From: Methanobacteriota archaeon
Lineage (GTDB): Archaea; Thermoplasmatota; E2; DHVEG-1
DNA: 64,000 nucleotides
Direction of reading: 5' to 3'
NCBI GenBank assembly: GCA_963769885.1
Contig: CAVYNH010000007.1
Coordinates: 352,001-416,000, forward strand
Shown: positions 2,440 through 58,420 of the stretch, piece by piece
Layout: each line of letters starts with the position of its first letter
How positions within the stretch are numbered: position 1 is the stretch's first letter
The notes under the pieces: generated by a model
Databases searched by the model: none
Told to the model about the DNA's origin: nothing
Seen by the model: the letters and a program-made list of their open reading frames with translations, nothing else
Made by a program: the position numbers and the translations under genes

Positions 2440-3602
2440 ATACGCGGCGGATGCTCTCGTTTACTAGGCGTACGCTGCTGCAATTCCGCCATGATCGCCG
2501 AACCCTGGCCTTCGTCATCATCATGCCGCTGCTGATGATGCTCATCTTCGGCTATACCTTCGGTGGTGACGTCAAGGGCATCAATGTCCAATTAGTGAAT
2601 GATGATATCGGCGTGCCCGTGGGAATCCCCGGGTTTGCAGGCGTTAATCTTGGGGCAAACATCTCGTCGAGTCTCGACAACGAAACACTCCATATTCATA
2701 TTGCTACGAATGCGAGTATTGCACGGCAGCAGGTGAAAGAGGGGAAGGCGTGGGCTGCTATCCTGTTTCCCGTGAATTTTTCCCAGGATTTCACTTGGAG
2801 CATAAGTCATCCGCAATCGCCAGCCCGCTCCACTGTGGAGGTATACCTGGATGGATCCAATCCGACAATCGCTAGCGTAGTGATGCAGACAGTGTCAAAG
2901 GCGATCCAAAAAGTAATGACGGACCTGGCCGAATCCATGAACGTCTCTCAGGCGCATATTCCGTTTTCTGTGAACACCTCATATGCGTATGGCGGCGGGG
3001 ACACGCGGTTCATTGACTATTTCGGTCCCGGCGTGATTTCGTTTGCCATCATGATGGTTACAACGATGATCACCATTATCTTGTTTGTCAACGAGCGGCG
3101 AACGGGGACGTTGCAGCGGCTGTTGGCCTCGCCGGCGACCGAGGGTGAGATCGTACTTGGATATTCGCTGGCGTTTGCGGTCATCTGTTTGTTGCAGAGT
3201 ATCGTGGTGTTGGTCACTGCAATCTTGCTGTTTAATGTGACCGTCGTGGGAAATATTTTCTTGGCGTTGGTGGTTGTATTGATTCTGGGGTTCGGTCATC
3301 AGGGGCTTGGGATCTTGTTGTCGGCGGGGGCGAGGAATGAACTGCAGGCGGTGCAGTTCATCCCCTTGGTCTTGTTTCCCTCGATTTTGTTGGCAGGGTT
3401 GTTCTGGCCAGTAGAGTCGATTCCATCGTATCTGCAGCCGTTGTCATATGTGGTGCCGCTTCGGTATGGGATTGAGGCGGAGCGGTCGATCATGCTTCGG
3501 GGGTGGGGGCTAGGGGAGATCTGGGTAGACGTGATGGTGTTGGTGATATTTGCAGCCTTGACTTTGTCAGGAAGTGTGCTGCTTTTGAAGCGGAAGCAGT
3601 AG
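2436..3602 (+). CDS. ABC-2 family permease
   Basis: 'RDRRTLAFVIIMP', large extracellular loop, 'ERRTGTLQRL', multiple TM helices; ATGA overlap with the ATPase gene. Confidence 0.92.
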   Translation: MNTRRMLSFTRRTLLQFRHDRRTLAFVIIMPLLMMLIFGYTFGGDVKGINVQLVNDDIGVPVGIPGFAGVNLGANISSSLDNETLHIHIATNASIARQQVKEGKAWAAILFPVNFSQDFTWSISHPQSPARSTVEVYLDGSNPTIASVVMQTVSKAIQKVMTDLAESMNVSQAHIPFSVNTSYAYGGGDTRFIDYFGPGVISFAIMMVTTMITIILFVNERRTGTLQRLLASPATEGEIVLGYSLAFAVICLLQSIVVLVTAILLFNVTVVGNIFLALVVVLILGFGHQGLGILLSAGARNELQAVQFIPLVLFPSILLAGLFWPVESIPSYLQPLSYVVPLRYGIEAERSIMLRGWGLGEIWVDVMVLVIFAALTLSGSVLLLKRKQ

Positions 3603-3781
3603 CGTTTGCAGTCTTTTTGGAGACTGTCCTTTAAATTCAAAAGAGAAGAAAGAAAATCGGGGAAAGATACCGTCAGTTCCTTTTTGTGTTCGATTTATTT
3701 CAGGATGTTTTGACCAGCCAGAGGTTAATGCTGTTCAGGAACTGTGTGGCATACCCGCTGAGAATCAGGCGAAGACGACAA

Positions 3782-3855
3782 TGGGCCCGGAGAGATTTGA
3801 ACTCTCGACCTACCGGTTATCAGCCGGTTGCTCCACCGATCTAAGCTACGGGCCC
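3782..3855 (-). tRNA. tRNA-Ile(GAT)
   Basis: Reverse complement GGGCCCGTAGCTTAGATCGGTGGAGCAACCGGCTGATAACCGGTAGGTCGAGAGTTCAAATCTCTCCGGGCCCA folds as a cloverleaf with anticodon GAT; CCA not encoded. Confidence 0.96.
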
Positions 3856-3883
3856 GCAGCGAAAGGGGGATATGCAGTAATCC

Positions 3884-3891
3884 TATAAAAA
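3884..3891 (-). promoter_or_regulatory. TATA box of tRNA-Ile
   Basis: TTTTTATA about 30 nt upstream of the tRNA 5' end. Confidence 0.6.
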
Positions 3892-3970: not shown

Positions 3971-4672
3971 ATGCAGAAAAGAATCCGGATTACGTACGGC
4001 GATATTCTATATAAACTCCCGCTCGTACTCCATCATATCTGGACCGATCTTTCATCCTGGGCTCTCGTTCTCACAAATCTGATAACAATCACGGTCGCTT
4101 ACCTGCAGCACTGGCCCTTCTCGACCATCATCTGGGTCTATTGGTGCCAGACCCTGATCATCGGCTTCTTCGCGTTTCTCCGCGCCATCTCACTCACCGA
4201 CCTCTCACCAACCCGTATCGACCAGATTCGACTCCGCTTCAAGCATACAGGAAATCTACGTGCTGGCGCCTTCTTCCTGGCGCATTTTACCGTCGCCCAG
4301 GCATGTCTCACGTTCGTCCTCTGGATGCTCATCGGGCCTGTCACAAGCGTCAACGCTATCGTGCTCCTTTCAAGCGCTACGCTCTTCTTCGGCAACCACT
4401 GCTTCTCATATATTTATCATCAAAAACGCGATCGTATCCTCCCAAAAAGTATCGGCTTGGCGCTCCTCCAGCCGTACCTTCGGCTGTTCCCCATCCTGGT
4501 CTCCTTGCTGTTCGCAGGGATGACCATCGGCGCCTTCTTCCTCACCCAAGCCCAGCAGCTCGTCCCCGTTGCCTTCCTCGTCCTCTTCGTCCTCAAAACC
4601 GGCGCGGACGTGACCGCCCATACCTTCGAGCATGGGATGCCACCGACCCGCAAACGGCCGAAGAACGCTTAA
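3971..4672 (+). CDS. Integral membrane protein, DUF6498-like
   Basis: 'W....IIWVYW.QTLIIGFF', 'FFLAHF', 'PYLRLFP', 'LKTGADV.AH' pattern; start uncertain (3938 or 3971). Confidence 0.65.
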   Translation: MQKRIRITYGDILYKLPLVLHHIWTDLSSWALVLTNLITITVAYLQHWPFSTIIWVYWCQTLIIGFFAFLRAISLTDLSPTRIDQIRLRFKHTGNLRAGAFFLAHFTVAQACLTFVLWMLIGPVTSVNAIVLLSSATLFFGNHCFSYIYHQKRDRILPKSIGLALLQPYLRLFPILVSLLFAGMTIGAFFLTQAQQLVPVAFLVLFVLKTGADVTAHTFEHGMPPTRKRPKNA

Positions 4673-5073
4673 TCAAGTAGCCGCTTCTCACCAGTCAATT
4701 TTTGCAGCGGCCCAATGTTCTGCGAGCACTCCGCGACCCCAAGGTACTCCCCCCTCTCGTTGCGCAGCGCATAATACTCAATGAGGATCTTCTGCTTCTC
4801 CGCCTTGGGACCGATCGGCAAGTCGATGTAGAACTGGGCTTTGTCCCGCTTCCCCGCCTTCATCTCCGAGATAATCGTCTCGACCTTCATCAGGCTCTTC
4901 TTCGGATGACACTGCCGCACATTCCGTCCGACCACACCCTCTGGCCGTTTGAAGATCCGCGTCGCATGCTTGTTCCACGCCAGGACCTTGTCATCCTTAT
5001 CCAGCACCGAAAACTCGATAGGAACAGTCTCTAACAGGGCCTGCAACACATCGTCAGGGAGTCGTCCAATCAT
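4669..5073 (-). CDS. Stand-alone PAS domain protein (DUF438/PAS_10-like)
   Basis: 'LETVPIEFSVLDKDDKV', 'RIFKRP..VVGRNVRQCHP', 'YYALRNERGEYLGVAE..QNI'. Confidence 0.8.
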   Translation of the reverse strand: MIGRLPDDVLQALLETVPIEFSVLDKDDKVLAWNKHATRIFKRPEGVVGRNVRQCHPKKSLMKVETIISEMKAGKRDKAQFYIDLPIGPKAEKQKILIEYYALRNERGEYLGVAECSQNIGPLQKLTGEKRLLD

Positions 5074-5184
5074 ATTCCTTCAAACCTCACTAGGTCCGAA
5101 AACCATTCCCTATAAAATACCTTTCCACAAGCCCTATTGAGAGTAATGTTAATAGGGGGCAACCAAATTCCTGCACGCTAGAGT

Positions 5185-6702
5185 ATGGACCCTACGAAAA
5201 CCATCGCCGAGCTTTCCTACAACGAAAAAAAAGTCCTACTCACATTACAGAAGCTCAACGGCCACGGCACCATCAAGGAAATCACTGAGAAAGGCGACTT
5301 CAGCCAAGACGTCGAGGTCGCCAACGCCGCTTCCTGGCTCCAGTCAAAACACCTCGTCATCCTCCAAACTACCATGACGACCGTCTACTCCCTCGGCAAA
5401 GACGGACGTCACTTCCTCGAGAAAGGCCTGCCAGAGAAACGGGCACTCAAATACCTGGCCGACCACGGGAGCAGCGCCCCCCTTACCAACCTCTCCAAAA
5501 TCCTCGCCCCTGAAGAGGTCCCCATCGCGGTCGGCTGGCTGCGCACCAATGGTTGGGCGACCATCCAGAAAGGCAAAGAAACCATCCTACGCATCACCCC
5601 CGCCGGCTCCCAGGCTGTTTCCCAGATCACGGACGTAGAGGCGCTCCTGCGTGAGCTGCACGAACACCCCGAAACGCCCCAGGAGAAGGCCCGCGTCGGG
5701 CCACTCCTCGCCCGCAAGAACGTCCTGAAGGAAAAAGAACTCATCAAAACTGTCATCACCCTCACGGACGAAGGACGGGCCATCCTGCAGCACGGCCTCG
5801 ACCTCAAAGAGGAAATCTCCCAAGTCACTACCGGCATTATCAAATCCCATGAATGGGCCCACAAGACGATCCGCCCCTACGACATCCATACGTTTGCCCC
5901 CGCGACCTATGGCGGCGGTCCACACCCCCTCATCCACCTCATCGGACAGATCCGCCAGATCTTCCTCGAGATGGGGTTCCAGGAAGTAGAGGGCAATTAC
6001 TTGGAGTCCTCGTTTTGGAACATGGACGTCCTCTTCATCCCCCAGGACCATCCCGCCCGAGAGATGCAGGATACCCTCTACTGCACGACACCCAAGACAC
6101 TCGCGATCACCGATCTGGCCTTATACAAGAAGATCGCCGAGGTCCATGAGAACGGTAACGCGACTGGGTCCACAGGCTGGGGCTACACCCTCTCCAAGCC
6201 GGAGGCGGAGCGTGCCCTCCTCCGGACGCACACCACGGTTAACACCATCCGCTACCTGTACTTCAACCCGATCCCGCCGGCGAAGGTCTTCAGCATCGGC
6301 CGGGTCTTCAGAAAAGAAAGCATCGATACGACGCACCTGCCAGAGTTCCATCAGATCGAGGGCATCGTCCACGAGGAACATGCCACCTTCCGACAGCTGT
6401 TGGGCATCATCAAGGAGTTTTACACCCGGATGGGGTTTGAGAAGATCCGGTTCCGCCCCGGCTACTTCCCCTACACCGAGCCTTCCATGGAAGTCGAGGT
6501 GTTCTGGAACGGAAAATGGATGGAGCTTGGGGGCAGTGGGGTCTTCCGCCCCGAGGTCACCATCCCAGTCGGAGTGACAAGCCCGGTGCTCGCCTGGGGA
6601 CTTGGCCTCGAACGCCTGGCCATGCTGAAGTTCGGCCTCTCCGACATGCGCCGCCTCTACGTCAGCGACCTGGAATGGATCCAGACGACACCACTCCTCT
6701 GA
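5185..6702 (+). CDS. pheS: Phenylalanine--tRNA ligase alpha subunit
   Basis: FWNMDVLFIPQDHPAREMQDT, LRTHTT, RVFRKESIDTTHLPEFHQIEG, YFPYTEPS, WGLGLERLAM; archaeal winged-helix N-terminus. Confidence 0.98.
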   Translation: MDPTKTIAELSYNEKKVLLTLQKLNGHGTIKEITEKGDFSQDVEVANAASWLQSKHLVILQTTMTTVYSLGKDGRHFLEKGLPEKRALKYLADHGSSAPLTNLSKILAPEEVPIAVGWLRTNGWATIQKGKETILRITPAGSQAVSQITDVEALLRELHEHPETPQEKARVGPLLARKNVLKEKELIKTVITLTDEGRAILQHGLDLKEEISQVTTGIIKSHEWAHKTIRPYDIHTFAPATYGGGPHPLIHLIGQIRQIFLEMGFQEVEGNYLESSFWNMDVLFIPQDHPAREMQDTLYCTTPKTLAITDLALYKKIAEVHENGNATGSTGWGYTLSKPEAERALLRTHTTVNTIRYLYFNPIPPAKVFSIGRVFRKESIDTTHLPEFHQIEGIVHEEHATFRQLLGIIKEFYTRMGFEKIRFRPGYFPYTEPSMEVEVFWNGKWMELGGSGVFRPEVTIPVGVTSPVLAWGLGLERLAMLKFGLSDMRRLYVSDLEWIQTTPLL

Positions 6703-6864
6703 TCCCGACTTCTATGCAGCTTCCCTCCCCCGATGTATCTCTAATCCCTGAGCCATAAACCTTAAATATAAAACATATTTTATTTTAGAGGATAAATGAT
6801 AACGGCTGTAAACAAAGACTTAAATAATCACGCGGACACCTAAGGTATACATGAGGTTGAGATC

Positions 6865-9738
6865 CTGAGCCACTTCTCCCGGAAACTCTCTGGACTTCTG
6901 CTCGTCAGTCTCCTCCTGACTTCGGGCCTGATGACTCTAGGACTTACCCCCACCGTCCGCGGGGCCACCAGCAAGTCAACCACCCTTTATTTCACAGACT
7001 ACCTGCCCTTCCTTGCCTCGAACGAATCCGACTACGGCCTCGAAGTCGTCAACTTCGCCCCCCTCGCCCCAACCCCACCCATGAAGACCAAGGACGCCGA
7101 ATACCCACCCCCCCTCTTCATCGAGAACACCAGCGGCGGCAGGCTCCCCAGCCTCAACGGCAACAACATCTCCCTCTGGGTCGTCACCTCCTGGGTCGCC
7201 TACTTCCTCGAAGACTACGGCTTCAACTTCAGCGACTACAGCGACCTCCTCCCCCCTGGCGTCTCCATTGAAGACCTCAAACTCTACTTCCCCAACCCCC
7301 TCCGCATCGTCGAACAATACAAATACACTGGCACTGAGCCCCTCACCATCACCGGCGACGTCCCCTTCACCGCCTACTTCGACGGCTTCCGCCACGGCCC
7401 CTTCGTCCACGACAACCTCACCGTCTCCCTCTACCTCTACAACGAAAACGCCACCATCCCCATCCCCCGCAAAATCCAAAGCACCAGCGTCGACGTCAGC
7501 ACACACCTCACCACCGTCCCCAAAACCACCATCGCTCTCAAGAACGTCTCCTTCACTATCAAACCCGATGAAAGCCTCCTCGCCTCCATCGAAATCCAAC
7601 CCGGAAACCGCTCCAACCTCATCCTCAAACGCCTCGACCTCGAAAAACTCGCCGCCCGCGCCCAAAAAATCGGCGACCGACTCGCCAACTCCTCCCACGC
7701 GCGCTTCCAAACCATCGGCGAATTCTTCCAAGAACTCATCCCCCTCGTCCAAGAATTCAACTTCACCACCGATGACCTTCTCAACATCATCAACACCCTC
7801 AAAGCCCCCCACTTCCTCTACGACTCCATCCAACACCCCACCTCCCTCACCATCCCCGCCGCCCTCCCTGGCCCCGCCGAGATCATCACCTATTATCTCC
7901 ACGCGGACCAGAACATGAGCAGCACACCGCCCGCCAAGAACTCCTCTACCAGCCTCGTCCTCGGCACCAGTACCTGGAAGGCGACCACCCTACCCCGCAA
8001 CAAGATCATCCACAACGCCACCGCCACCCTCTACCTCCGTCACCTCTTGGTCCCCACTCGATTCTCGGTCATGGCCACCCTTTACGACAACAACGTCTCC
8101 ATCGCCAACGTCAGTGTCCGCCTGCCCAGCAAACTCCCCGGCCGCTTCGGACTAAGCCCTGCCCTCATCCTCTTCCCCAACCTCAACCATGAGCTCCCCT
8201 ACGGACACCAACTCCGCCTCGGAGTCTCCATGCCAAAGACGCCTTTCGTGAAAATCCTGCGCCGGACCATCCTCCTCTACGACTCCTCAGCCGCCCCATC
8301 ATCGATCACGGTCACCTACACCGACACCAAGAACATCAATATCAGCTATACAGCTGACCCCACCTCGCAGACCATCCTGCCAGGCGGCAGCATCATCTAC
8401 ACCCTTGCGATTACCGGCAGGCTCGCAGATACCATCACCCTAACAGTTGTGAACAAGAGCCAAGGCCATTGGCGACTCGACATCCCGCAAACGACGGCCA
8501 CGCTCACCGCAGGCGGCACCGCCACCCTCAACGTCACCGCCGTCTCCACCGACGACACCAAAGCCGCATACAACAGCACCATCGACCTCACTTTCCAAGT
8601 GACCGGCCATACGGGCATCGCCCAGGCCACGGCCAGCGCGCGAATCTCCCAAGAAGCCATCAAATACGCCGTCACAATCATCGGCTACCCTGAAAGCCTC
8701 AACATCTCCAAAGGAGAAAACCGCAGCTTCTACATCATCGTCGCCAACAACAACACCGGCGCGGTCGACGATACCGATAGCTACACAGTCACCGCCACCT
8801 CGGACAACCAGTGGGTCATGGCCAACGAAAATATCCCCGACGTCGTCCGCGGCAACACCTCGACCCCGACCTTGGTCATCGAATCAGTCCCTCAGAACAC
8901 CAGCCTCAATTCGGATACCATCAGGATTACGGTGACCTCTGTACGCAGCCCGACGACCTCTAGCACCGTCACAATCCTCGTCAAAGTCAACAGCCCCAAC
9001 TCCATCGAAAACGTCTATGACTGGTTCAAGAGCCTCGCCCAGAACCTTGGCCTCACCGGACCGTTCGGCGACTACGCCCCCATCGTCCTCGTCGCCATCC
9101 TCATGATAATCATCATATTCATCATCATAATCCTCACCCTTGTACTCACCCACAGGGTCGGCCGACTCATCGCCCCGGATCGCATCCGAGAAATCGACAG
9201 CACGGGCGAAGCCCAGTTCCCAATCACAATCAAAAACAACACCCGTAAACCACGGACCTATACCGTAACCGCGACCCAAACCCGGCCTGAGATGCCTTGG
9301 GCCGTCACAATCACCCCACAGAATATCACCATCGAGGGACGGCAACAGGCAATCGCCACTGTCTCCATCCGGCCACCCGCAGGCGCAGCCCCCAAAGACT
9401 GGTGCGAACTGAACCTCACCGTCAAAGCCCACGGTGCCCGAGCCGAACGCCTCTCTCTTCTAACCCTTATTAAGGAAGGAACGACGATCCTGCAAGTCCA
9501 AAACGTCACCCACAATCCCGCCTCTTTCATGGCCGGAGACCGCGTCGTCACCTCGTTCACCGTCGCTAATGAAGGGACGGTCAACGCCCCGAAGGCATCC
9601 ATCCTCTTCTACCTTAACCGAAAGAAGGTCGCCAGCCTCGACTGCGCCATCCCCGCAGGAGGGGCCGCCGACATCCAAGTCCCCTGGATCGCTACGAAAG
9701 GCAAAAACACAGTAAAAGTCCAGGTGAAGACGCCATAA
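6865..9738 (+). CDS. Large single-pass membrane protein with Ig-like domains and C-terminal CARDB-like domain
   Basis: 935+ aa ORF with many N-x-S/T sequons and one long TM near 9075-9150, followed by basic Ig-like domains; in-frame signal peptide extends upstream of ATG 6931 to CTG 6865. Confidence 0.75.
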   Translation: MSHFSRKLSGLLLVSLLLTSGLMTLGLTPTVRGATSKSTTLYFTDYLPFLASNESDYGLEVVNFAPLAPTPPMKTKDAEYPPPLFIENTSGGRLPSLNGNNISLWVVTSWVAYFLEDYGFNFSDYSDLLPPGVSIEDLKLYFPNPLRIVEQYKYTGTEPLTITGDVPFTAYFDGFRHGPFVHDNLTVSLYLYNENATIPIPRKIQSTSVDVSTHLTTVPKTTIALKNVSFTIKPDESLLASIEIQPGNRSNLILKRLDLEKLAARAQKIGDRLANSSHARFQTIGEFFQELIPLVQEFNFTTDDLLNIINTLKAPHFLYDSIQHPTSLTIPAALPGPAEIITYYLHADQNMSSTPPAKNSSTSLVLGTSTWKATTLPRNKIIHNATATLYLRHLLVPTRFSVMATLYDNNVSIANVSVRLPSKLPGRFGLSPALILFPNLNHELPYGHQLRLGVSMPKTPFVKILRRTILLYDSSAAPSSITVTYTDTKNINISYTADPTSQTILPGGSIIYTLAITGRLADTITLTVVNKSQGHWRLDIPQTTATLTAGGTATLNVTAVSTDDTKAAYNSTIDLTFQVTGHTGIAQATASARISQEAIKYAVTIIGYPESLNISKGENRSFYIIVANNNTGAVDDTDSYTVTATSDNQWVMANENIPDVVRGNTSTPTLVIESVPQNTSLNSDTIRITVTSVRSPTTSSTVTILVKVNSPNSIENVYDWFKSLAQNLGLTGPFGDYAPIVLVAILMIIIIFIIIILTLVLTHRVGRLIAPDRIREIDSTGEAQFPITIKNNTRKPRTYTVTATQTRPEMPWAVTITPQNITIEGRQQAIATVSIRPPAGAAPKDWCELNLTVKAHGARAERLSLLTLIKEGTTILQVQNVTHNPASFMAGDRVVTSFTVANEGTVNAPKASILFYLNRKKVASLDCAIPAGGAADIQVPWIATKGKNTVKVQVKTP

Positions 9739-9777
9739 ACCTTAATAACTGAGATTCTTTCGCTCCCTTGAGAAAAG

Positions 9778-10671
9778 GTGTATCTGGTGTCAGAGAGCCC
9801 GCCCAAAAAAAAGGAAGACCTCGAGCAAATCAAGAATGCGGAGAAGAAGTACCAAGCTCTCATCGACAAACGAAACGAACTCAACGCCTTAGCGAAACTC
9901 TCCCGCGACGAACGCGACATGCTCAACCAAAAACGCAAGGAACTCCGCGACGCCATGGACGTCTGCAAGACCGAGCGCGACAAGCTCGTCAAACAAATGA
10001 AGGAACATAAGGAGAAACGCACCCGGTACCAACAGCAAGCAAAAGACCTCATCACCGCGAAACGCAAGAAAAAAGGCGACGTCATCAAGAACCTCCCACT
10101 TCAAGCCGAGGAACTCAAAGCCGACATCCAGCTCCTCGAATACGAGCAAGAAACCACACCTATGGACACCCGCGCCGAGAACAAGCTCATCGACAAAATC
10201 AAGCTAAAACGCCGCGAATACAAAGCCCTCAAAGTGCAACTCGAAAAACAGCACCTCATCGAAACCGACCTCTCCGACGTCGACAAGGCTATCACCGACC
10301 TCTTCAAGAAGGCAGACGAAGAGCACAAACAAGTCGTCCACTTCTACGAAGCAAGCCAAAAGAAGCACGAGGAGTTCCTCAAAGTCGTCAACGAAATCGC
10401 CACCCTCATCACCGAATCCAACAAGAAACACAAACAATACATGGAAATCAAAGACGAGGCGCAAAGCAACCACGACAAAGCCTTCGAGATGCGCTCCAAA
10501 ATCATCGGGGCCAAGAAAGAGCGGATGCAGCGCTTCCAGGAGGCCAGGGAGATCCTCCGAAACCAAAACATCCTGGCAAAAAAGGCGCTCACCGACGAAA
10601 CCAAACTCGACAAGGCCGCCGAAGACTCCGTCACAGCCCTCAAGAACGGCAAAAAGATCTCCCTCACGTAA
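9778..10671 (+). CDS. Archaeal coiled-coil protein (COG1340-like), paralog 1
   Basis: K/E-rich heptads, 'KRNELN...ERDMLN', 'LEYEQETTPM', C-terminal 'LKNGKKISL'; start may be GTG 9787. Confidence 0.8.
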   Translation: MYLVSESPPKKKEDLEQIKNAEKKYQALIDKRNELNALAKLSRDERDMLNQKRKELRDAMDVCKTERDKLVKQMKEHKEKRTRYQQQAKDLITAKRKKKGDVIKNLPLQAEELKADIQLLEYEQETTPMDTRAENKLIDKIKLKRREYKALKVQLEKQHLIETDLSDVDKAITDLFKKADEEHKQVVHFYEASQKKHEEFLKVVNEIATLITESNKKHKQYMEIKDEAQSNHDKAFEMRSKIIGAKKERMQRFQEAREILRNQNILAKKALTDETKLDKAAEDSVTALKNGKKISLT

Positions 10672-11805: not shown

Positions 11806-11812
11806 TGCAAAT

Positions 11813-45982: not shown

Positions 45983-45985
45983 TGA

Positions 45986-50084: not shown

Positions 50085-51245
50085 TTAAGACGTGGTCGTC
50101 TGGAGCTTCACGACCCGGCTCAGGCGATAGCCGATGACGACCAGGAAATATTCCTTCTTGACGAACAGGGCGTCGAGCATTGGGTCGCCGGTGTCGACCC
50201 GCAAGAGCGGGGTCTCCGCCAGCTTGGCGGGGGTCGAGACGATGACTATGTTCTCGATGCCGATCTTTCGAATGACTTCGGGACTGAGCTGCAGGTTGCC
50301 TCGGCCAAGGATGAACCCTTGGGCGCCGATCGGGCTGAGGACGAGTTTCACCGAAGGATACTGTTGAAGAAGGGAGAGGAGGCCAGCCTCGTTCAGGTCC
50401 GAGGCGACCACGTTCCCGTGGTACACCGCGTCGATGCCGAGCAGGGTATGTCTGAGGCCGAGCCGTGTGGCGATATAGTCAATCGTGCCGCCCGGTCCGA
50501 GAAGGAACAGCGACCGGGGATTCTTCGTCATCTCATCCTTGATATGGTCAGCCAACTCATCTTTTACGGCGTCATCGGAGACGGACTCATAGGTGGCCTT
50601 ACCCACCTGGACAAAGGTCGGTTCGACTACGCCTTTGGCGACGCCGTAGAGACGGACCCGCCATTCCCCATGCCGATAGGCCGCCTCGTCCACATCGAGG
50701 ATATCCGCGTCGCCGATGGTGAGGCTCCCTTGAAGATAGGCCGCCAGGCATTTCGCGGTCGCCTCGACGGAGACCCCGAACAGGCCTGAGTGCATCTTGA
50801 CGCCGGACGGGATGCCCAGGATTGGAATCGTGGTTCCAAGAACGTTGAAAACATCGCGCGCCGTCCCATCCCCACCACAGAAGAGAACAAGATCCAGCTT
50901 TTCTGCGAGGAATTGATTACAGGCGCGAGTCGTATCCTCAGCTGTTGTTTCCTTCCTCGGGGTGTACACGACGGTGACAGCCGATTCGTGAAGCCCGATG
51001 AGGGTCGCCTCACCCATGGGTCCGGCACAGGTGTACCAATGAATCCTGACATCGGGGATGAGCACGCGGAGATGACGGATGGCGTCAACTGCCTTGTGTT
51101 CGGCAATCGGCGTGGCCCCGCGGGCCTTCGCCTCGGTGATCACATGGTCCGTCCCCTTCAACCCGACGCGACCCCCCATGCCCGCGATAGGATTGACGAG
51201 GAAACCGATACGACACGTCTTCGCAGCAGACTGAGTCTTCTTCAT
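50085..51245 (-). CDS. ATP-NAD kinase family protein (COG3199-like)
   Basis: NPIAGMGG.VGLKGTD, GGDGTARD, GVKMHSG, GFILGRGNLQLS, VDTGD; start probably ATG 51245. Confidence 0.88.
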   Translation of the reverse strand: MKKTQSAAKTCRIGFLVNPIAGMGGRVGLKGTDHVITEAKARGATPIAEHKAVDAIRHLRVLIPDVRIHWYTCAGPMGEATLIGLHESAVTVVYTPRKETTAEDTTRACNQFLAEKLDLVLFCGGDGTARDVFNVLGTTIPILGIPSGVKMHSGLFGVSVEATAKCLAAYLQGSLTIGDADILDVDEAAYRHGEWRVRLYGVAKGVVEPTFVQVGKATYESVSDDAVKDELADHIKDEMTKNPRSLFLLGPGGTIDYIATRLGLRHTLLGIDAVYHGNVVASDLNEAGLLSLLQQYPSVKLVLSPIGAQGFILGRGNLQLSPEVIRKIGIENIVIVSTPAKLAETPLLRVDTGDPMLDALFVKKEYFLVVIGYRLSRVVKLQTTTS

Positions 51246-51465
51246 AGCCCTGATTTTCCTAGGCATCACCCAACAAGGTTTAAAGGTAATCCCAAGAGAA
51301 ATGCAGATGACCCCCTGGCTCCCATCCTCTAGAGACAGTTGGCCCCCAAGAAAACACCTATCAGGCATTACAATATTACCTTCGTGGACCACCAGAGGGA
51401 GATAAATCTATTTTTGCGAATAAGATTAAATAATACTTCCCTGATAGTACATGGAGGGAGGTTAT

Positions 51466-54400
51466 ATGAAGAAAACAGACCCGATTCAAAGATGCGTAGT
51501 GGCAGCTACGTTTATATTCCTCATTTTCGCCAGCACTACCCAGGCCCTCATCCAACCAATCGCCTGGACCACACCCCAACAACCCATGCCCCTGAACCGC
51601 GGAAACCCGACCGGGCTTTGGGAAGACTTGTTCGACAACGCCTCCAAAATCGACCCCACGCCACCCGGCGCCGGCGCCAGCGACAACTACCTCGTCAGCG
51701 GCGGACACGCCAGCATGACCGGCACCTATACCATCTGGACCGACCCCTCCTTCACCCGCATGAAACCCATCACTCTCACCAACGCCGGCTCCGCTAAAAC
51801 CAACTACGTCCTCAAGCTCACCATCGCCTATGACTCCGACATGGCCAGCGACTACCACAACCTCCGATTCAAACACGAAAGCACCCCTGGCGCCTGGCTC
51901 CCCTACTGGATTGAATTCTACAACACCACCCAAGCCGTCGTCTGGGTCAAACTCACCAGCATCCCCGCCAGCGTCAGCATGCTGTACCTCTTCTACGGCA
52001 ACCCCTTAGCCCCTGCCGCCTCCAACTTCGTCAACACCTTTGGCACCGCATGGACAAAAACATGGGCATCGGACACCCAAATCTCCAGCCAGCCCTCCCT
52101 TCAAAACGCCGTCGACCCCGACTTCGCCTTCGGCAACAACAAATTCCTCGCCACCTGGGAGGAAGGCACCCTCGGCCCCCTTCTCTACTACCGAGGCATC
52201 GAAGGCAAGATTTACGATAGCTCGGGCACCATCATCGTCCCAACTTTTGTCATCCAAGAGAACCCTCCATCCACTTATCGTTATGAGAACCCCTCCGCCG
52301 CCTACGGCGGCAGCAACTTCTTCGTCGCCTACAATTACTACGATACGCCTACTCAGGCTGCCACTGAAGACGTCCACGCTAAAATCGTTCACCAGGACGG
52401 CACCCTCGGCAGCGAGATCATCGTCTGCAACGCTCTCGACACCACAAACGAGCCAGTCGTCGTCTTCGACCCCGTCCACAGCCGGTTCACCGTCGTCTGG
52501 CAGGATGCCAGGTCCGGCGAGACCAACTTCAACATCTACGCCCGACAATACGACACCTCCGGCGGCCCCTTCACAGAACACGCAATCTGCACCGCCTCCA
52601 ACAGCCAGCTCGACCCCTGGATCGCCTACGACAAACTCCACGGCCGCTACCTCGTCGCCTGGGAAGACTGCACCGACACCAGTGATGGACCCTTCAGCCT
52701 GTACGCCCAACTCCTCGACTACAACCTCAACGCCATCGGCAGCTCCTGGCTCGTCGCCAGCGGCTCCGACAGCCTCGACTGCGTCTGGCCCTGCGTGATG
52801 TTCTCCGAACTCTCCCAACGGTTCCTCATCACCTGGAACAACGGCGACTTCAGCGCCGGCGACAACTACGGCAACATTAACGGCCGACTCTATTCCTGGG
52901 ACGGAACCGCCTACCTCAGCACCTTCACCATCGACACCGGAGACTTCCACGTCACCCAAATCAAACCCTACCTCGCCGGCTCCTACCTCGTCACCTACAA
53001 CAGCGTCTTCGGCGTCTACTGCAAGCTCGTCGGACCCGACGGCACCATCCTTGACGGGCAAGTCCAACTCTCCTCCAACAGCGCCTTAACCCCCAATACG
53101 GCCGCCGCCGCGGTCGGCGCCAACAAGCTCTTCGTCGGCTGGGAAGACAAACGAATCAGCACCACCTACGCTTACGTCTTCGGCAACCTCGAAGTCCTCA
53201 GCCTCCTCCCCCTCGACACCGACGTCACCGGCTCCATCGGAGCAGAACAAGCCATCATCCTCACCGCCCACATCACCTCCATCGCCATCACTCCGACCAT
53301 CCTCACCTCATGGCTACTCTTCCGCGCCCTCTACTCTGGCACCGTCACCTTCGACATCCTCGACGGCACCACCGGCGCCCTCCTCATCCCCAACATCCCC
53401 ACCGGCGGCTCCCTCGCAGCCCTGAGCACCACCAGCATCAGACTCAAAGCCACGCTCACCAGAACCACCCCCGCGACGTCCCCATACCTCGACAGCTGGA
53501 ACGTCACCTGGAACCAAAACCAACCACCAGCCGCACCCAGCAACCCCTCCCCAGCCAACAACACCAACGGAACAAACCCCAACTGCCTCCTCTCCTGGAC
53601 CGACTCAGACCCCGACGGTGACAGCCTCACCTACGACGTCTACCTCGAGAACACCAGCACCCCAGGAAAGGTCGCTGCGAACATCACCACCACCAACTAC
53701 ACCCACTCAACCCTGCCGTTCCAACAAACCTACTACTGGCGCATCGTCGCCTGGGACGAGCACGGCAGCCGAACCCAAGGCCCCCTCTGGCGGTTCAAAA
53801 CCGACGCCTACCCCAACGTCCCCTCAAGCCCAATACCAGCGAACCACGCCACCTGGGTCGAGATCAACCAAACCCTCTCGTGGACCGGCGGCGATCCTGA
53901 CGCAGCCGACATCGTCGTCTACGATGTCTACTTCGGGACAAATACATCCCCACCGCTCTTTAGCGTCCACCAATACGCCACCATCTTAAACCCCGGACTT
54001 ATGAACTACCTCACGACCTACTACTGGAAGATTGTTGCCATTGACCGATACAACGCATCAACTACAGGGCCTATCTGGAACTTCACAACAGTCTACGCCC
54101 CCAACAACCCCCCCTACGTCCCCAGCTCCCCCTCACCCACGAACGGATCGACCAACATCTCCGTGAACACCAACCTCACCTGGGTCGGCGGCGACCCCAA
54201 CCCCATGGACACAGTGACGTACGACATTTACTTCGGGACCACGAACCCGCCACCGCTCTGCGTTACCGCCTATCCGACCACAAACTACCACCCCACGAAC
54301 GTCACCTACCTAACGCACTACTACTGGCGCATCATCGCCTGGGACAACCGAGGAGCCTCTACTACAGGCCCCCTCTGGCATTTCTGGACCGCGGCAGAGG

Positions 54401-55320
54401 TCAACTACCCACCGTACGCCCCCTCTGACCCGACCCCCGCGAACCATGCAACCAATGTCTCAATCTCAACGAACCTCTCTTGGAACGGAGGCGACCCCAA
54501 CCAGGGAGACATGGTGCACTATGATGTGTACTTCGGGACAAGTGCGACCCCGCCTCTCGTGGTCCATAATCAATCGGCGCTTGTGTACATCCCAGGAACC
54601 CTTGAGTATGAGACCACGTACCACTGGAAGATCGTCGCCTGGGACCCCCATAACCTGTCCACCGCGGGATCAATCTGGGACTTCAGGACCGAGAAAGAGT
54701 TCAACTACCCCCCCATTGTCCCCCATGACCCCGTCCCGGCCAACGGGTCAACCAACCAAAGCCCGACCGTGCATGTCTCGTGGCTCTCTGGCGATCCGAA
54801 CCCGCATGACATCGTGACGTTCGATGTTTACTTCGGGAACACCTCGTCACCGCCGCTTATCTCAGCGAACCAGACGGCCAACTCGTACAACCCGGGCCGC
54901 CTACAGTGGAACATGACCTACTACTGGCATATCGTCGCCTGGGATAACCATGGGAATTTCAGCGAGGGGCCGCTCTGGCAGTTCACGGTAATGCCAGTGC
55001 CGCCGGACTCCATCCCGCCGACGGTGTCAATCGTGAAGCCGGAAAAGGCGCTGTACTTCAGGAATATCAAAGTCTGCCGGTTCTTCGCCGCAGTGGCGAT
55101 CAGTTATATCGATGTGACTGCGAACGCCTCGGACAACGAGACTGGAGTGAACCGGGTGCAGTTCTCCATCGACGGAGTCCCAAAGAACACGGTGACCACA
55201 GCGCCGTACACCTGGCAGTGGACCGAGAGCGGATTCTTCTTCTACACCTTGACGGTCACATGCTGGGACAACGCCGACAACAAGGCTGAAGCCTCTATGC
55301 GGGTCTGGAAGTTCCTATAA
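51466..55320 (+). CDS. Large secreted protein: DUF2341, beta-propeller-like region, five FN3-like repeats, C-terminal Ig domain ending VWKFL
   Basis: Signal peptide; 'LRF...LPYWIE...VWVK...LYLFYGNP'; repeats 'SW.GGDP....YDVYFG...YYW.IVAWD..GP.W.F.T'. Confidence 0.85.
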   Translation: MKKTDPIQRCVVAATFIFLIFASTTQALIQPIAWTTPQQPMPLNRGNPTGLWEDLFDNASKIDPTPPGAGASDNYLVSGGHASMTGTYTIWTDPSFTRMKPITLTNAGSAKTNYVLKLTIAYDSDMASDYHNLRFKHESTPGAWLPYWIEFYNTTQAVVWVKLTSIPASVSMLYLFYGNPLAPAASNFVNTFGTAWTKTWASDTQISSQPSLQNAVDPDFAFGNNKFLATWEEGTLGPLLYYRGIEGKIYDSSGTIIVPTFVIQENPPSTYRYENPSAAYGGSNFFVAYNYYDTPTQAATEDVHAKIVHQDGTLGSEIIVCNALDTTNEPVVVFDPVHSRFTVVWQDARSGETNFNIYARQYDTSGGPFTEHAICTASNSQLDPWIAYDKLHGRYLVAWEDCTDTSDGPFSLYAQLLDYNLNAIGSSWLVASGSDSLDCVWPCVMFSELSQRFLITWNNGDFSAGDNYGNINGRLYSWDGTAYLSTFTIDTGDFHVTQIKPYLAGSYLVTYNSVFGVYCKLVGPDGTILDGQVQLSSNSALTPNTAAAAVGANKLFVGWEDKRISTTYAYVFGNLEVLSLLPLDTDVTGSIGAEQAIILTAHITSIAITPTILTSWLLFRALYSGTVTFDILDGTTGALLIPNIPTGGSLAALSTTSIRLKATLTRTTPATSPYLDSWNVTWNQNQPPAAPSNPSPANNTNGTNPNCLLSWTDSDPDGDSLTYDVYLENTSTPGKVAANITTTNYTHSTLPFQQTYYWRIVAWDEHGSRTQGPLWRFKTDAYPNVPSSPIPANHATWVEINQTLSWTGGDPDAADIVVYDVYFGTNTSPPLFSVHQYATILNPGLMNYLTTYYWKIVAIDRYNASTTGPIWNFTTVYAPNNPPYVPSSPSPTNGSTNISVNTNLTWVGGDPNPMDTVTYDIYFGTTNPPPLCVTAYPTTNYHPTNVTYLTHYYWRIIAWDNRGASTTGPLWHFWTAAEVNYPPYAPSDPTPANHATNVSISTNLSWNGGDPNQGDMVHYDVYFGTSATPPLVVHNQSALVYIPGTLEYETTYHWKIVAWDPHNLSTAGSIWDFRTEKEFNYPPIVPHDPVPANGSTNQSPTVHVSWLSGDPNPHDIVTFDVYFGNTSSPPLISANQTANSYNPGRLQWNMTYYWHIVAWDNHGNFSEGPLWQFTVMPVPPDSIPPTVSIVKPEKALYFRNIKVCRFFAAVAISYIDVTANASDNETGVNRVQFSIDGVPKNTVTTAPYTWQWTESGFFFYTLTVTCWDNADNKAEASMRVWKFL
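53518..54990 (+). repeat. Five tandem FN3-like coding repeats of about 300 nt
   Basis: Units start at about 53518, 53803, 54103, 54403 and 54703. Confidence 0.85.
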
Positions 55321-55595
55321 GGCCTCCCCCCCTCATTCCTTTTTTCTGTTTTCGGCAGCAGTATTAACGCATTTTTTTCGACGGTTGGCGGTTTTGGTGA
55401 TTTCCCCACGACAGCTATTTAAGGGATGACCGAGAAAAGAGAGATTGGTGAGGAAGGACGCTGTTCGCCTCTGATCTTCGGCCTTCCTGAGCTTGCGCTC
55501 CTGCGCTGGTCGCGCGGGGTGTGGTGGCCTCTCGCGGTCCGCGTGGTCGGTGTGCTCGCGTCTCCGCTGTCTTAGGGGGTCTCCCTAAGCCTCCC

Positions 55596-56171
55596 TCACC
55601 TTTGCGGGAGATGGGGGTGCGTTTTTGAGAGCTTATCGAGATCGACGCAGCCGTTATCGTATATTCTGAGGAAGGTATCGGCGTTCAGGCTGTAGAGGTC
55701 TGAGGTGCAGAGCTGGTGGTACTCTAAGCAGGCCTCGTGTTTGACATCATTAATGACGCTGGAGGTGAGCGGGCTGGTGAAGTGGTAGTCTTCGCTGAGG
55801 AAGAGGTTGACACCGTTCTTGAGAGTGGTGATCATGATGTGGCAGTCGTTGACGACATGGTCTGCGGAGACGCCGAGGTGATGTTCCATGGATCGGGCGC
55901 AGGCTTGGCCGAAGGCGTCGGCGAGGAGTCGGTTTTTGAAGTCGATGACGGTGGCGTGGGAGGTGCGGATCCGTTTCATAGCCATGTTATAGGTGGTGAG
56001 GGTGATGCGCCCCCAGATTTTGAGTTGTTCGAGTTCGGAGAGGACGGTGGCGGTGATGAAAGAGGGGATGTGGTGGTGGGCGATGGTTTTGATGATGGCG
56101 TCGACGGTTTGGGTGTCGCGGAGGAGGAAGGAGGTGTCGAAGGAGACGCTGCGGATGGGGGTGGCAGTCAT
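55596..56171 (-). CDS. PIN-domain nuclease (solo)
   Basis: 'VSFDTSFL', 'TVLSEL', 'NDCHI', 'FLSEDYHF' acidic PIN motifs; start ATG 56171. Confidence 0.8.
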   Translation of the reverse strand: MTATPIRSVSFDTSFLLRDTQTVDAIIKTIAHHHIPSFITATVLSELEQLKIWGRITLTTYNMAMKRIRTSHATVIDFKNRLLADAFGQACARSMEHHLGVSADHVVNDCHIMITTLKNGVNLFLSEDYHFTSPLTSSVINDVKHEACLEYHQLCTSDLYSLNADTFLRIYDNGCVDLDKLSKTHPHLPQR

Positions 56172-56305
56172 GGGTGGTGACAAGAGTTGATGTGGGTTTT
56201 TATTGATTTTCATTGGGTTTTTGTTTGGCTGAGGTTGTATAATAATAAAGTTTGGAGGATAGTTTTTTATAGCTTCAGGGGAATACTTTTCCTGAAGGGA
56301 GGCTT

Positions 56306-58279
56306 ATGCAAGCGCGGATGATCGGGAAACTGGCATGTCTTTGTGTCTCAGGTTTGCTTTTCTGTACGGGGATGCCGATGCTGTCTGCTGTGATGTCGAA
56401 GGGTCCGGTGGGGACCGGGGATTTCACAGCGGGTATTCTGTGGTGGCATGATTTGAATGCGCCGTCGTTTGGGTCGGCGTCGGTGGGGGATATCGACGAG
56501 GATGGGCGCCCTGAGGTTGTGTTTGGGACGTATTTCAATGACGAGCATGTGTATGCCTTGAATGCTGAGGATGGCAGCCTGTTATGGTGGTATGATACGG
56601 GTGGGTGTAATGATGCGTCGTCCGCGATCGCTGATGTGGATGGTGATGGGCATTTGGAAGTGGTTGTGCCGGGGTCGTCAGCGTGTGTGGTGTTTTGTTT
56701 CAATGGGGCGACGGGGGCGGTGAAGTGGTCTCGGTCGTTGGGGTATAGTCTTGATTCGCCGCCGGCGGTGGCGGATGTGGATGGTGATGGGCGTCCTGAG
56801 GTGCTCCTCGGGTCGTATGGGGGGTACATCTTTTGCTTGAAGGGTGAGGATGGGACGGTGCAGTGGCAGCGGAATGTCGGGACGAATAGCTATATTCAGT
56901 CGTGTCCGACGGTGCTGGATTTGAATGGGGACGGATTGCTGGAGGTGGTGGTGGCGCAGTGGGCTGGGGATGATCGGGTGTATGCCCTGCGTGGGTCGAA
57001 TGGGTCGACGGTGTGGTTTTCGGATCTGCCGAATGATTATATGTATCATGGGCCGTCGTTTGGGGATGTTGATGGGGATGGGTTGCCGGAGTTGGCGATT
57101 GGGTGTTATGATAATCATGTGTATGTGTTGAATGGTGAGGATGGGAGTCTGTGTTGGGCGTATGCGGCGTCGTGGTATGTCGGGGCGCCGACGTGTCTTG
57201 GTGATTTGAATAATGATGGGTTTTTGGAGGTCGTGTTCGTGGCGTATAACATGGTCGGGGTGTTGTCGCATACGGGGTCGTTGCTGTGGAGTTATGCGAC
57301 TGGGGGGAATGTGTTCCGTGGGGTGGCGATCGCGGATGTGGATGGGAACGGGGTCCTGGACGTGGCGTTTGGGTGTGATGATGGGATTGTGCGTGTCTTG
57401 CGCGGTGATTCCGGGGCAGTGGTGTGGACGTATGATCTACAGGCGCATTATGGGCAGGTGTTTGAGATGGATCATGCGCCGGTGCTGGCGGACCTGAATG
57501 GGGATGGGATGTTGGATTTGTTTGTGGTGGGTGGTCATGGTGAGTCGTCTCCTCATCCGGAGAATAATCATGGGCGGGCGTATGCGTTGTCCGCCGGGGT
57601 TGGGACTGGTGCTGGGTGGAGGATGTTCCATCATGATCTGGTGCATAGCGGGCGGTATCAGGTTGGGGAGAATCAGCCGCCGGTGCCTGGTGGTGGTTCG
57701 GGACCGTGGATGGGGCGTCCCGGGGTGAATTATACGTTTTGTGTGAATATTACTGATCCTGATGGGGATGCAGTGTTTTGTGACTGGAATTTCGGTGATG
57801 GGTCGACGAGCGGCTGGTTGGGGCCGTATCCGTCCGGGTCGTCGTGCTGTGTGATGCATGCGTGGGCCACTGAGGGCGTCTTTGAGGTGCGGGTGCGGCT
57901 GCGTGATGACGAGGGAGCGGTGAGCGGGTGGTACGTGGTGTGTAATATCACGATTGATGGGAGTGCGCCGGCGCTGAGTCTGGTGCGGCCGGATGGGCGG
58001 CGGGTGTATCTCGGTGACAGGTTGTCGTTTCCGTTTATTCTGACCGTGTTGGTGGGTTCGGTGACGGTGGAGGCGACGGCGCAGGATCCGGTGAGCGGGG
58101 TGGCGCGGGTGGAGTTCTTGGTGGATGGGGTGGTGGCGAGCATCGATGAGAGTGCGCCGTATGAGATGGTCTGGGAACATGGATGGATGGAGGGCCGGCA
58201 TAAGTTGAGGGTGGCGGCGTATGATACGGTGGGGAACTGGGGAGAGCTGGAGGATGTGGTGGTCTGGAAATTGTTGTAG
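56306..58279 (+). CDS. Secreted FG-GAP/PQQ-like beta-propeller, PKD domain and C-terminal Ig domain ending VWKLL
   Basis: Repeated DxDGDG..EVV / ALNG.DG..LW blades, 'WNFGDG', signal peptide. Confidence 0.88.
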   Translation: MQARMIGKLACLCVSGLLFCTGMPMLSAVMSKGPVGTGDFTAGILWWHDLNAPSFGSASVGDIDEDGRPEVVFGTYFNDEHVYALNAEDGSLLWWYDTGGCNDASSAIADVDGDGHLEVVVPGSSACVVFCFNGATGAVKWSRSLGYSLDSPPAVADVDGDGRPEVLLGSYGGYIFCLKGEDGTVQWQRNVGTNSYIQSCPTVLDLNGDGLLEVVVAQWAGDDRVYALRGSNGSTVWFSDLPNDYMYHGPSFGDVDGDGLPELAIGCYDNHVYVLNGEDGSLCWAYAASWYVGAPTCLGDLNNDGFLEVVFVAYNMVGVLSHTGSLLWSYATGGNVFRGVAIADVDGNGVLDVAFGCDDGIVRVLRGDSGAVVWTYDLQAHYGQVFEMDHAPVLADLNGDGMLDLFVVGGHGESSPHPENNHGRAYALSAGVGTGAGWRMFHHDLVHSGRYQVGENQPPVPGGGSGPWMGRPGVNYTFCVNITDPDGDAVFCDWNFGDGSTSGWLGPYPSGSSCCVMHAWATEGVFEVRVRLRDDEGAVSGWYVVCNITIDGSAPALSLVRPDGRRVYLGDRLSFPFILTVLVGSVTVEATAQDPVSGVARVEFLVDGVVASIDESAPYEMVWEHGWMEGRHKLRVAAYDTVGNWGELEDVVVWKLL

Positions 58280-58420
58280 CTGATTCTTCACATTTAAGAT
58301 AGAAAAAAACACAAAGGCTCTTTCTTCACTTTCCTCTCTGACTATGCCAAATATGATGATGTGATATTTGATATAAGACCTTCTTTTGCCTCTTTTTCCG
58401 CTGGAACATTTACTCGTAGT

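Follow-up and report, generated by a model that had tools for sequence, protein, structure and literature searches.

A kilobase-scale sawtooth of keto skew across the genome of an uncultured Thermoplasmatota archaeon, with NucS-filtered strand replacement as a candidate cause

Results

Skew domains in the analysed locus

The window is the whole 64-kb stretch that was analysed. Its genes include those for aMBF1, Sua5/TsaC, MEMO1, hpt, an mfnA-like protein, hutI, orc1/cdc6, priS, a DUF1614 protein and an FG-GAP/PKD protein. The plus strand alternates between C/A-rich and G/T-rich domains (Table 1). When comparing the computed domains with the C/A-rich and G/T-rich blocks listed in an initial annotation of this DNA, we find that they match, and its three hand counts are exact (C37/G9 at 20521-20580, G35/C2 at 36841-36900 and G26/C4 at 57061-57120). 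G/T-rich coding strands were found for all genes for which they had been claimed, namely DUF1614 (+0.71), priS (+0.58), FG-GAP (+0.76), hpt (+0.23), the mfnA-like gene (+0.36) and the 5' half of hutI. The domains had also been described as running across five divergent promoters. This holds at 17.3, 40.1, 43.6 and 56.2 kb, whereas at 51.4 kb promoter and switch coincide, the skew going from +0.06 at 50.6 kb to -0.71 at 51.8 kb.

Table 1. Skew domains, switches and selected genes of the window.
Feature	Position	Strand	Limits (kb)	Details
G/T-rich domain, + strand (C/A-rich strand is -)	2760..3752		2.8-3.8	peak four-fold +0.44; ends at tRNA 3782-3855
C/A-rich domain, + strand	4090..11836		4.1-11.8	extreme -0.74 smoothed, -0.90 local; holds minus-strand gene 4669-5073 with G/T-rich coding strand
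G/T-rich domain	13907..18599		13.9-18.6	spans divergent promoter at 17.3 kb, reaching DUF1614
Downward switch at intergenic gap	18525..18736			+0.58 at 18.2 kb to -0.65 at 19.4 kb
C/A-rich domain	18966..21775		19.0-21.8	aMBF1: G/T at 0/77 four-fold sites; Sua5/TsaC: 3/126
G/T-rich domain	23069..27234		23.1-27.2	MEMO1 gene (-): C at 144/168 four-fold sites
C/A-rich domain	28995..35017		29.0-35.0	hpt and mfnA-like genes on - strand
1070-aa gene across upward switch	34442..37654	-		+ strand four-fold skew -0.54 to +0.96 within gene
G/T-rich domain	35784..38001		35.8-38.0	peak +0.83 smoothed
C/A-rich domain	39478..42259		39.5-42.3	begins within hutI; spans divergent promoter at 40.1 kb
G/T-rich domain	42982..50179		43.0-50.2	dip at 45.5-45.9 kb; spans orc1/cdc6-priS divergent promoter
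C/A-rich domain	51197..54421		51.2-54.4	begins at divergent promoter, 51.4 kb
G/T-rich domain	55219..58561		55.2-58.6	FG-GAP/PKD gene (+): G at 261/355 four-fold sites

The skew is genome-wide and follows position

The sawtooth of keto skew extends over the whole 2.09-Mb genome of this uncultured sediment archaeon (Thermoplasmatota, DHVEG-1-like). At four-fold sites the keto skew rises and falls smoothly, from about -1 to +0.96 and back, and the median length of a cycle is 10.9 kb. One strand is nearly without G and T at silent sites for a few kilobases, then the opposite strand, and this recurs about 160 times per genome. The standard deviation of the skew per kb is 0.16-0.21 on all seven contigs, compared to 0.032 for independent bases, and that of the four-fold skew per gene is 0.44, compared to a binomial 0.09. 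Over 35% of the genome, single-copy genes have an absolute skew above 0.5; genes were called with our own caller, which missed some strongly skewed ones. GC skew and TA skew correlate positively (Spearman 0.62 per gene at four-fold sites), and 1-kb windows reach GC skews of -0.55 and +0.56 and AT skews of +0.55 and -0.36.

The skew of intergenic DNA tracks that of its flanks (r=0.79-0.88), and neighbouring genes in opposite orientation have skews that correlate at +0.41 in plus-strand coordinates. Within one ribosomal operon (rps13-rps4-rps11-rpoD) the skew runs through -0.84, -0.15 and -0.05 to +0.32. Since the sign flips inside single genes and operons and intergenic DNA follows its flanks, the skew follows position. 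The genome-wide calculation at four-fold sites, which the initial annotation had proposed, agrees: position predicts the sign, and the true coding-strand step is small (+0.11±0.035 at tight convergent junctions). Gene orientation thus does not determine the skew, as had been claimed, but it is not irrelevant. Coding strands have a mean skew of -0.25, and in this genome (G000) divergent junctions are enriched at downward switches (43-56% vs 16%, with coding corrections of up to -0.1).

There are about 160 switches of each kind, downward (G/T to C/A) and upward (the opposite). The downward switches are located at intergenic gaps, where steps are steeper, with ramps within operons. Four-fold-site G+C is lower at both kinds. 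Replichore-scale skew is absent: means over 100 kb stay within ±0.04, and no replichore carries one sign. The proposed shift in amino-acid composition is present genome-wide and at aligned orthologous positions (T x1.44 and H x1.40 vs V x1.31 and R x1.46).

An oriented motif at the domain boundaries had been suggested as a search target; none was found among k-mers of 4-9 and gapped words compared with the local step, which returned only TATA-like or AT-rich words at downward switches. After matching for intergenic status and G+C, no strong motif remained at switches; the effect of CCCGGG at upward switches is small (0.08), and ORB-like words are not distributed over the switches. The suggestion of a local, oriented process at the kilobase scale is supported, but not its variant in which repair starts at an oriented motif. 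The canonical oriC lies on contig 6, upstream of orc1/cdc6, and consists of two ORBs and an AT-rich stretch. In G000 and in the relatives G003, G050 and G018 it coincides with a downward switch between co-directional genes. In G037 and G058 the switch at oriC goes upward, most other relatives are flat there, and with this inconsistent sign oriC fails as an anchor for the skew across the family.

Assembly and selection do not account for the pattern

That an assembly artefact or recent inversions produce the pattern is hardly conceivable. The assembly carries some single-base frameshifts; however, contigs assembled from short reads of the same strain have 99.96% identity over 10 kb, and 43 kb of a second strain align colinearly with the assembly at 96.3% identity. 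These two comparisons exclude recent inversion and misassembly, which the initial annotation had named as grounds for rejection. Furthermore, G003 reproduces the profile (r=0.83-0.98), and the transitions are smooth ramps within intact genes. Selection acting on codon usage, on RNA structure or on the composition of proteins is very improbable. It would fit the small coding-strand step, but the intergenic and within-gene results, together with the correlated skews of oppositely oriented neighbours, largely refute it, and orthologues in different relatives have opposite skews. The data thus support that position sets the sign of the skew and that the coding strand, the amino-acid content, inversion and misassembly do not account for it.

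Repair genes across the family

The genome encodes a full-length NucS/EndoMS with both domains (NCBIfam NF003270 at 249 bits, cut-off 216; PF21003 and PF01939). MutL was found in none of 61 family genomes, and neither MutS nor a Y-family polymerase in any of five. Histone, NurA and DprA families were likewise found in none of five genomes, skewed or flat; without a NurA or DprA hit, no standard route for resection or for uptake is apparent. Skew amplitude varies across the family, with a median of 0.16 in genomes with nucS and 0.08 where nucS was not found (PGLS slope 0.079±0.034, p=0.025), with exceptions. G035 (90% complete) is strongly skewed (0.31) and nucS was not found in it, whereas G046, G012 and G032 are flat despite nucS, so that NucS is not sufficient. 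Also encoded are a polymerase of the PolB2 type and a RadA-like partner; as a cause of the skew PolB2 was rejected, since amplitude does not vary with its presence (PGLS p=0.77).

In strongly skewed relatives, the purged strand retains G at 0.04-0.10 (0.15 in G003) and T at 0.07-0.18. It is dominated by A or C according to G+C, the partition is keto/amino in every such relative, and the correlation of GC and TA skews recurs. EndoMS cleaves only G/T, G/G and T/T and spares C/A, C/C and A/A mismatches (PMC6159521). With single-stranded donors in M. smegmatis, C-C, A-A, C-A, A-C, G-A and A-G pass and G-T and G-G do not, with repair patches of ~6 nt (PMC11551744). Haloferax gene conversion requires nucS (PMC11276520). 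By analogy with these organisms, the substrate set of NucS would coincide exactly with the keto/amino split of the purged bases.

Differences between strains have patchy polarity

When comparing the genome to the 96%-identical strain, we observed that SNPs form patches of ~0.5 kb in which the A/C alleles belong to one of the two strains (z about 8). These patches are shorter than the skew domains (~5 kb). The amino/keto polarity of SNPs is coupled at r=0.10 for distances of 4-100 bp, 0.08 at 101-300 bp, 0.03 at 301-600 bp and 0 beyond. The coupling persists with synonymous SNPs alone and is weak across gene junctions. In amino sign, C/T SNPs couple with A/G, C/G and A/T SNPs; for A/C and G/T SNPs no clear coupling is seen. 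An HMM assigns half of the SNPs to tracts of ~460 bp with 73% purity, and the polarity is also patchy where divergence is below 3%. Pairs of other archaea that share 92-97% identity, taken as controls, give a coupling of about 0, and sister-clade pairs one of up to 0.07. Changes within tracts are co-oriented, as in biased gene conversion, and other causes of patches are possible. The patchy polarity points to tract-wise conversion or clustered change rather than independent point mutation, an option absent from the initial annotation. It could also stem from donor imports with another local skew or from clustered mutagenesis.

Divergence per kb is a mosaic that ranges over 0.5-11.5% (variance 520, mean 37), which is what one would expect if recombination were frequent. 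Four-fold divergence is not raised in skewed zones (0.063-0.088). On the purged strand, A/C differences are about three times the flat-zone expectation, with 44 of them compared to 4 G/T differences. Outgroup polarisation gave T as ancestral at C/T sites in 0.36 (CI 0.06-0.71); as four-fold sites are nearly saturated at 80% identity, it does not separate fixation bias from mutation bias.

Discussion

A filter on strand replacement and its rivals

The explanation we favour, tentatively and at somewhat short of even confidence, is that the sawtooth is the fixation footprint of directional strand invasion or replacement filtered by NucS/EndoMS. In recombination between strains or between chromosome copies, heteroduplexes would form in which, at each locus, one strand is preferentially the one that comes in or is newly synthesised; it would extend 5'->3' over a few kilobases, leading away from intergenic gaps. 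NucS, if its specificity is that known from other organisms, would remove G/T, T/G, G/G and T/T in short patches and ignore C/A, A/C, C/C and A/A. T->C, G->A, G->C and T->A changes on the incoming strand would thus pass, and the reverse changes would be rejected. The incoming strand would lose G and T at free sites and the opposite strand C and A, the pattern seen here. Where opposed tracts meet, the skew would ramp through zero, and the A:C ratio of the purged strand would follow genome G+C. In favour of this explanation are the keto/amino partition of the purged strand, the presence of nucS where MutS and MutL were not found, the EndoMS specificity known from other organisms, the patchy SNP polarity, the mosaic divergence and the higher amplitude with nucS. 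The excess of A/C differences on the purged strand is not predicted by a pure NucS filter and counts against this explanation, as do the skewed G035, the flat genomes that have nucS, the weak coupling across gene junctions, the lack of NurA and DprA hits and SNP patches that are shorter than the domains. A further-reaching version, which we regard as possible but doubtful, takes the sawtooth as a fossil map of about 160 intergenic starts of strand invasion, perhaps of origin-independent replication, with a NucS-filtered conversion bias that would also explain GRINS.

The profile might instead be a map of fork direction, like mammalian N-domains at about 1/100 of their scale, with about 160 intergenic replication starts (or stops), spaced by ~11 kb, and a strong difference in uncorrected errors between leading and lagging strands. 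The steep steps at intergenic gaps, the ramps in operons, the missing skew in 100-kb bins and the downward oriC of four genomes fit such forks. We nevertheless consider them unlikely, as oriC is upward or flat elsewhere, the switches carry neither ORB-like words nor another motif, four-fold G+C dips at both switch kinds, and independent point mutations do not produce patchy SNP polarity; skews of about ±0.95 would presumably also need a nearly 100% fixed fork direction at a range of 5 kb. Patchy polarity and raised A/C differences are what would be expected of error-prone repair or restart patches running 5'->3' from intergenic gaps, in which NucS removes G/T errors and leaves C/A, a mutation bias rather than a conversion bias. 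PolB2 and its RadA-like partner could serve such patches, but amplitude does not go with PolB2 presence, the five genomes searched yielded no Y-family polymerase, skewed zones are not more divergent, and runs of 10-20 same-sign SNPs in 500 bp would imply an error rate of 2-4% within a single event, which makes this account improbable. A general 'C-writing' (Rev1-like) cause, derived from reversible rate estimates, was rejected because AT-rich relatives are A-rich and a Y-family polymerase was not found in the five genomes. Six rate models fitted to the composition curve gave no discrimination.

Least probable among the strand-specific processes, in our view, is transcription (with read-through and antisense), in which the non-template strand gains C/A via transcription-coupled damage or repair. 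The negative mean of coding strands and the divergent junctions at downward switches speak for it, as does the termination factor aCPSF1, which is frameshifted in the assembly. However, the sign is not fixed by the coding strand within a transcription unit, as the flips within the ribosomal operon and within single genes demonstrate, and the sense strand downstream of tRNAs is not C/A-rich. Moreover, 15 strongly skewed relatives lack a link to divergent or convergent junctions and have mean coding skews of -0.30 to +0.15. A broken aCPSF1 was rejected as the cause, since G003 is skewed with aCPSF1 intact. The dominant direction of transcription, offered as a cause by the initial annotation, is thus disfavoured.

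Implications and comparison with known systems

Skew at this scale is averaged away in cumulative skew plots. The bias shifts protein composition by position, at orthologous sites towards T or V, and can mislead methods for codon bias, dN/dS, binning and trees. If the filter model is true, one could read from sequence alone where strand exchange or replication begins in uncultured archaea and in which direction, a matter of relevance to archaeal replication without origins. If the sawtooth is indeed a map of NucS-filtered conversion at about 160 sites, it would reflect a genome-wide evolutionary force distinct from GC-biased conversion that rewrites proteins.

Replication-associated keto skew is known from bacterial replichores and mammalian N-domains, with G+T and C+A on opposite strands. 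The sawtooth resembles it in that its steps and ramps follow position coordinates whatever the coding strand, but differs in its 11-kb cycle, its amplitude near 1, the missing replichore signal and the variable sign at oriC in the family. GC-biased gene conversion is a bias in heteroduplex repair that acts like selection and changes proteins; here, the bias is strand-specific, amino over keto on one strand, and not GC over AT. Our literature search, which left most subscription papers outside, returned no description of a kilobase-scale sawtooth. Archaea have been reported with greatly reduced strand-specific bias (PMC12999951; 4096-bp windows) and described with little strand-specific mutation or repair, yet strand purging is nearly complete in this lineage. 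The likeness to NucS/EndoMS repair (PMC6159521, PMC11551744) lies in the gene being present, MutS and MutL not being found and the substrates matching the purged bases; in C. glutamicum, however, NucS is linked only to weak replichore skew (PMC6159521), and we found no paper linking NucS to kilobase skew domains.

A further close likeness is to GRINS (2021, PMC8256042), with intense and positively correlated GC and TA skews that are strongest at third positions and switch sign within ~1 kb, and with amino-acid shifts of Gly and Val up and Pro, Thr and His down. Both the skew correlation and the amino-acid shift of GRINS are found here, and absolute GC and TA skews exceed the GRINS threshold of 0.15 in 1-kb windows, where the paper uses 150 nt. 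GRINS are defined on duplicated regions >500 bp and >80% identical (PMC8256042), whereas self-BLAST found 0 bp of duplicated DNA in the window and a duplicated share of 0.12% in strongly skewed DNA. GRINS have been tied to gene conversion, with the mechanism left open (PMC8256042), and the NucS-filtered strand replacement that we tentatively favour would, if true, provide a testable cause for them.

Extent and reality of the skew domains

The initial annotation had described multi-kilobase blocks that are alternately rich in C/A and in G/T on the + strand. Our recomputation reproduced its hand counts exactly, and the computed domains match its positions. The 2.09-Mb genome shows the pattern on each of its seven contigs, with a standard deviation (SD) of the keto skew (G+T versus C+A on one strand) per kb of 0.16–0.21 compared to 0.032 expected with independent bases. 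The autocorrelation of the skew per kb is negative at 4–8 kb; genome-wide there are about 160 downward switches (from G/T-rich to C/A-rich along the + strand) and about 160 upward switches, with a median cycle of 10.9 kb. An artefact was ruled out as the source of the domains, since contigs assembled from short reads of this strain match the genome at 99.96% identity across 10 kb, a second strain is colinear across 43 kb at 96.3% identity, and the congeneric genome G003 has the same profile with a weaker amplitude (r=0.83–0.98). We conclude that the strand asymmetry is real, extreme and genome-wide. It is apparently undescribed in the literature, where our search found no published account of kb-scale strand-skew domains like these.

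Position, not coding strand, governs the skew. At four-fold sites, the skew per gene has an SD of 0.44 compared to a binomial 0.09, and neighbours in opposite orientation are correlated at +0.41 in + strand coordinates. The profile runs smoothly over gene ends, spans -0.54 to +0.96 within one gene and changes sign within the rps13-rps4-rps11-rpoD operon, while intergenic DNA tracks its flanks (r=0.79–0.88). These data bear out the earlier claim that gene orientation does not set the sign. The true coding-strand step, estimated at tight convergent junctions, is small (+0.11±0.035). The mean coding-strand skew of this genome is -0.25, as its domains correlate with its gene layout; no such correlation was found in 15 other strongly skewed relatives.

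Spread across the family and effect on proteins

The nearest named relatives are the Thermoplasmata archaea M11B2D, SG8-52-3 and MFD00709, which we take to be members of DHVEG-1/Thermoprofundales. Amplitude, measured as the excess SD of skew per gene, forms a gradient between 0 and 0.43 over 54 family genomes and carries phylogenetic signal; loci of other Thermoplasmata and methanogens mostly lie below 0.13, a few reaching 0.21. All strong cases have little G and T on the purged (C/A-rich) strand, with A or C dominant according to genome G+C (A 0.35, C 0.47, G 0.06, T 0.12 in the relative G014; A 0.68, C 0.12, G 0.04, T 0.17 in the relative G037). Four-fold G+C is 0.75 in the genus studied here and 0.11–0.49 in the remaining family; AT-rich islands of the genome are unskewed.

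The bias also shifts amino-acid composition, as had been proposed from the sequence. At positions aligned with weakly skewed relatives, C/A-coded stretches are enriched in Thr (×1.44), His (×1.40) and Pro (×1.25), and G/T-coded stretches in Val (×1.31), Arg (×1.46) and Gly (×1.12).

Switches and the replication origin

Under any coding correction, 67–86% of downward switches lie at most 400 bp from an intergenic gap of at least 80 bp, compared to 45% by chance; upward switches have no such association with these gaps. Slopes within operons are upward. Taken together, the 5'→3' direction of the C/A-rich strand thus leads away from intergenic gaps. Equivalently, the G/T-rich strand runs towards them, and the sequence fits a source and a barrier alike. 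An oriented motif had been suggested for the domain boundaries, but our search at both kinds of switch found none that marks them. Many genomes of the family have the ORB elements of the canonical oriC at identical offsets. The origin coincides with a downward switch in the genome studied and in G003, G050 and G018, and with an upward switch in G037 and G058.

Around the 60 tRNA genes called genome-wide, several of which may be false, sense-strand skew reaches +0.33 just upstream and is about +0.1 downstream, i.e. the step is polar.

Coordinates of individual features (G000, genome under study, with contigs C3, C6 and C7; L329–L331, loci cut from it; G042, a family relative)
Feature	Location	Strand	Observation
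Canonical oriC	L331:6630-7040 (G000:C6:261630-262040)		Two ORB elements with G-strings flank an AT-rich stretch; upstream of orc1/cdc6, with nucS directly behind orc1/cdc6
Second orc1/cdc6 paralogue	window 42333-43515	-	Divergent from priS; an additional base near 42901 splits the gene, probably through a long-read error (the short-read contigs do not reach this site); intact in G003 (418 aa)
aCPSF1 (FttA) termination factor	window 46018-47929	-	An additional G in a short run at 46547 splits the gene, probably through a sequencing error; G003 and cluster members carry an intact version (636 aa)
RadA-like ATPase, small protein, PolB2-type polymerase	L329:5975-9214 (G000:C3:57975-61214)		One cluster; the polymerase is patchy (25 of 61 family genomes)
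Family-shared PolB (956 aa)	L330:7458-10328 (G000:C6:605458-608328)		Very divergent, under all NCBIfam cut-offs; motif C is YGDTDG
Partial, weak NucS match	G042:C138:18306-18485		Lies in a frame of 86 aa; may be the remnant of a nucS; moderate skew persists in this genus
tRNA genes	window 3782-3855, 61278-61351
ARAGORN 'tRNA-Stop' call	G000:C7:545852

SNP polarity between strains

Between the two strains, 1320 of 1608 SNPs are amino/keto swaps. Nearby SNPs tend to have the amino base in the same strain, with a correlation of 0.10 at 4–100 bp, 0.08 at 101–300 bp and 0.03 at 301–600 bp that falls to zero at larger distances (z about 8); the effect is also present in synonymous SNPs alone and at less than 3% divergence. 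The coupling by amino sign involves C/T, A/G, C/G and A/T SNPs, with no clear coupling for A/C and G/T SNPs, and it is weak across gene junctions. A hidden Markov model yields tracts of about 460 bp with a purity of 73% that cover half of the SNPs. Divergence itself is a mosaic of 0.5–11.5% per kb. In control pairs from other archaea at 92–97% identity, the correlation was about zero.

Mechanism and alternative explanations

EndoMS cuts G/T, G/G and T/T only (PMC6159521), and in M. smegmatis only NucS-blind mismatches pass from single-stranded donors, with short-patch repair (PMC11551744). Together, these results partition the deliverable changes into amino and keto. NucS also has an established role in archaeal gene conversion. 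We propose, tentatively, that the sawtooth stems from strand conversion filtered by NucS/EndoMS, a concrete and testable mechanism that is not proven. One strand would be the incoming strand at each locus; this incoming or newly made strand would deliver T→C, G→A, G→C and T→A, and the reverse changes would be blocked. Patchy SNP polarity is the trace expected from such filtered imports, but donors whose local skew differs, or clustered mutation, could leave it as well. On the purged strand, A/C differences exceed the prediction of a pure filter. Median amplitude is 0.16 in genomes with nucS compared to 0.08 where it was not found (PGLS, p=0.025). This association is weak. It has real exceptions: the relative G035 is skewed with nucS not found there, and some nucS genomes are flat.

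Many local fork starts are an unlikely origin of the domains, error-prone repair patches are a still less probable one, and transcription is the least probable. Filtered conversion, fork starts and repair patches are not exclusive because recombination-dependent replication would combine all three. No MutL was found in 61 family genomes, and no MutS, Y-family polymerase or DprA in the five family genomes searched for them. Searches for NurA and histone (PF00808) likewise found neither in five genomes (G000, G014, G037, G046 and G025), and chromatin and end resection may be unusual in this archaeal family.

Comparison with known systems

A 2026 survey reports that strand-specific bias is greatly reduced in archaea (PMC12999951). 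The pattern described here differs from replichore skew and from ordinary transcription skew. In how the skew works, it resembles GRINS, which are duplicated regions with intense correlated GC and TA skews; however, almost none of the strongly skewed DNA of this genome is duplicated in the way that defines GRINS. The domains are a GRINS-like skew without repeats.
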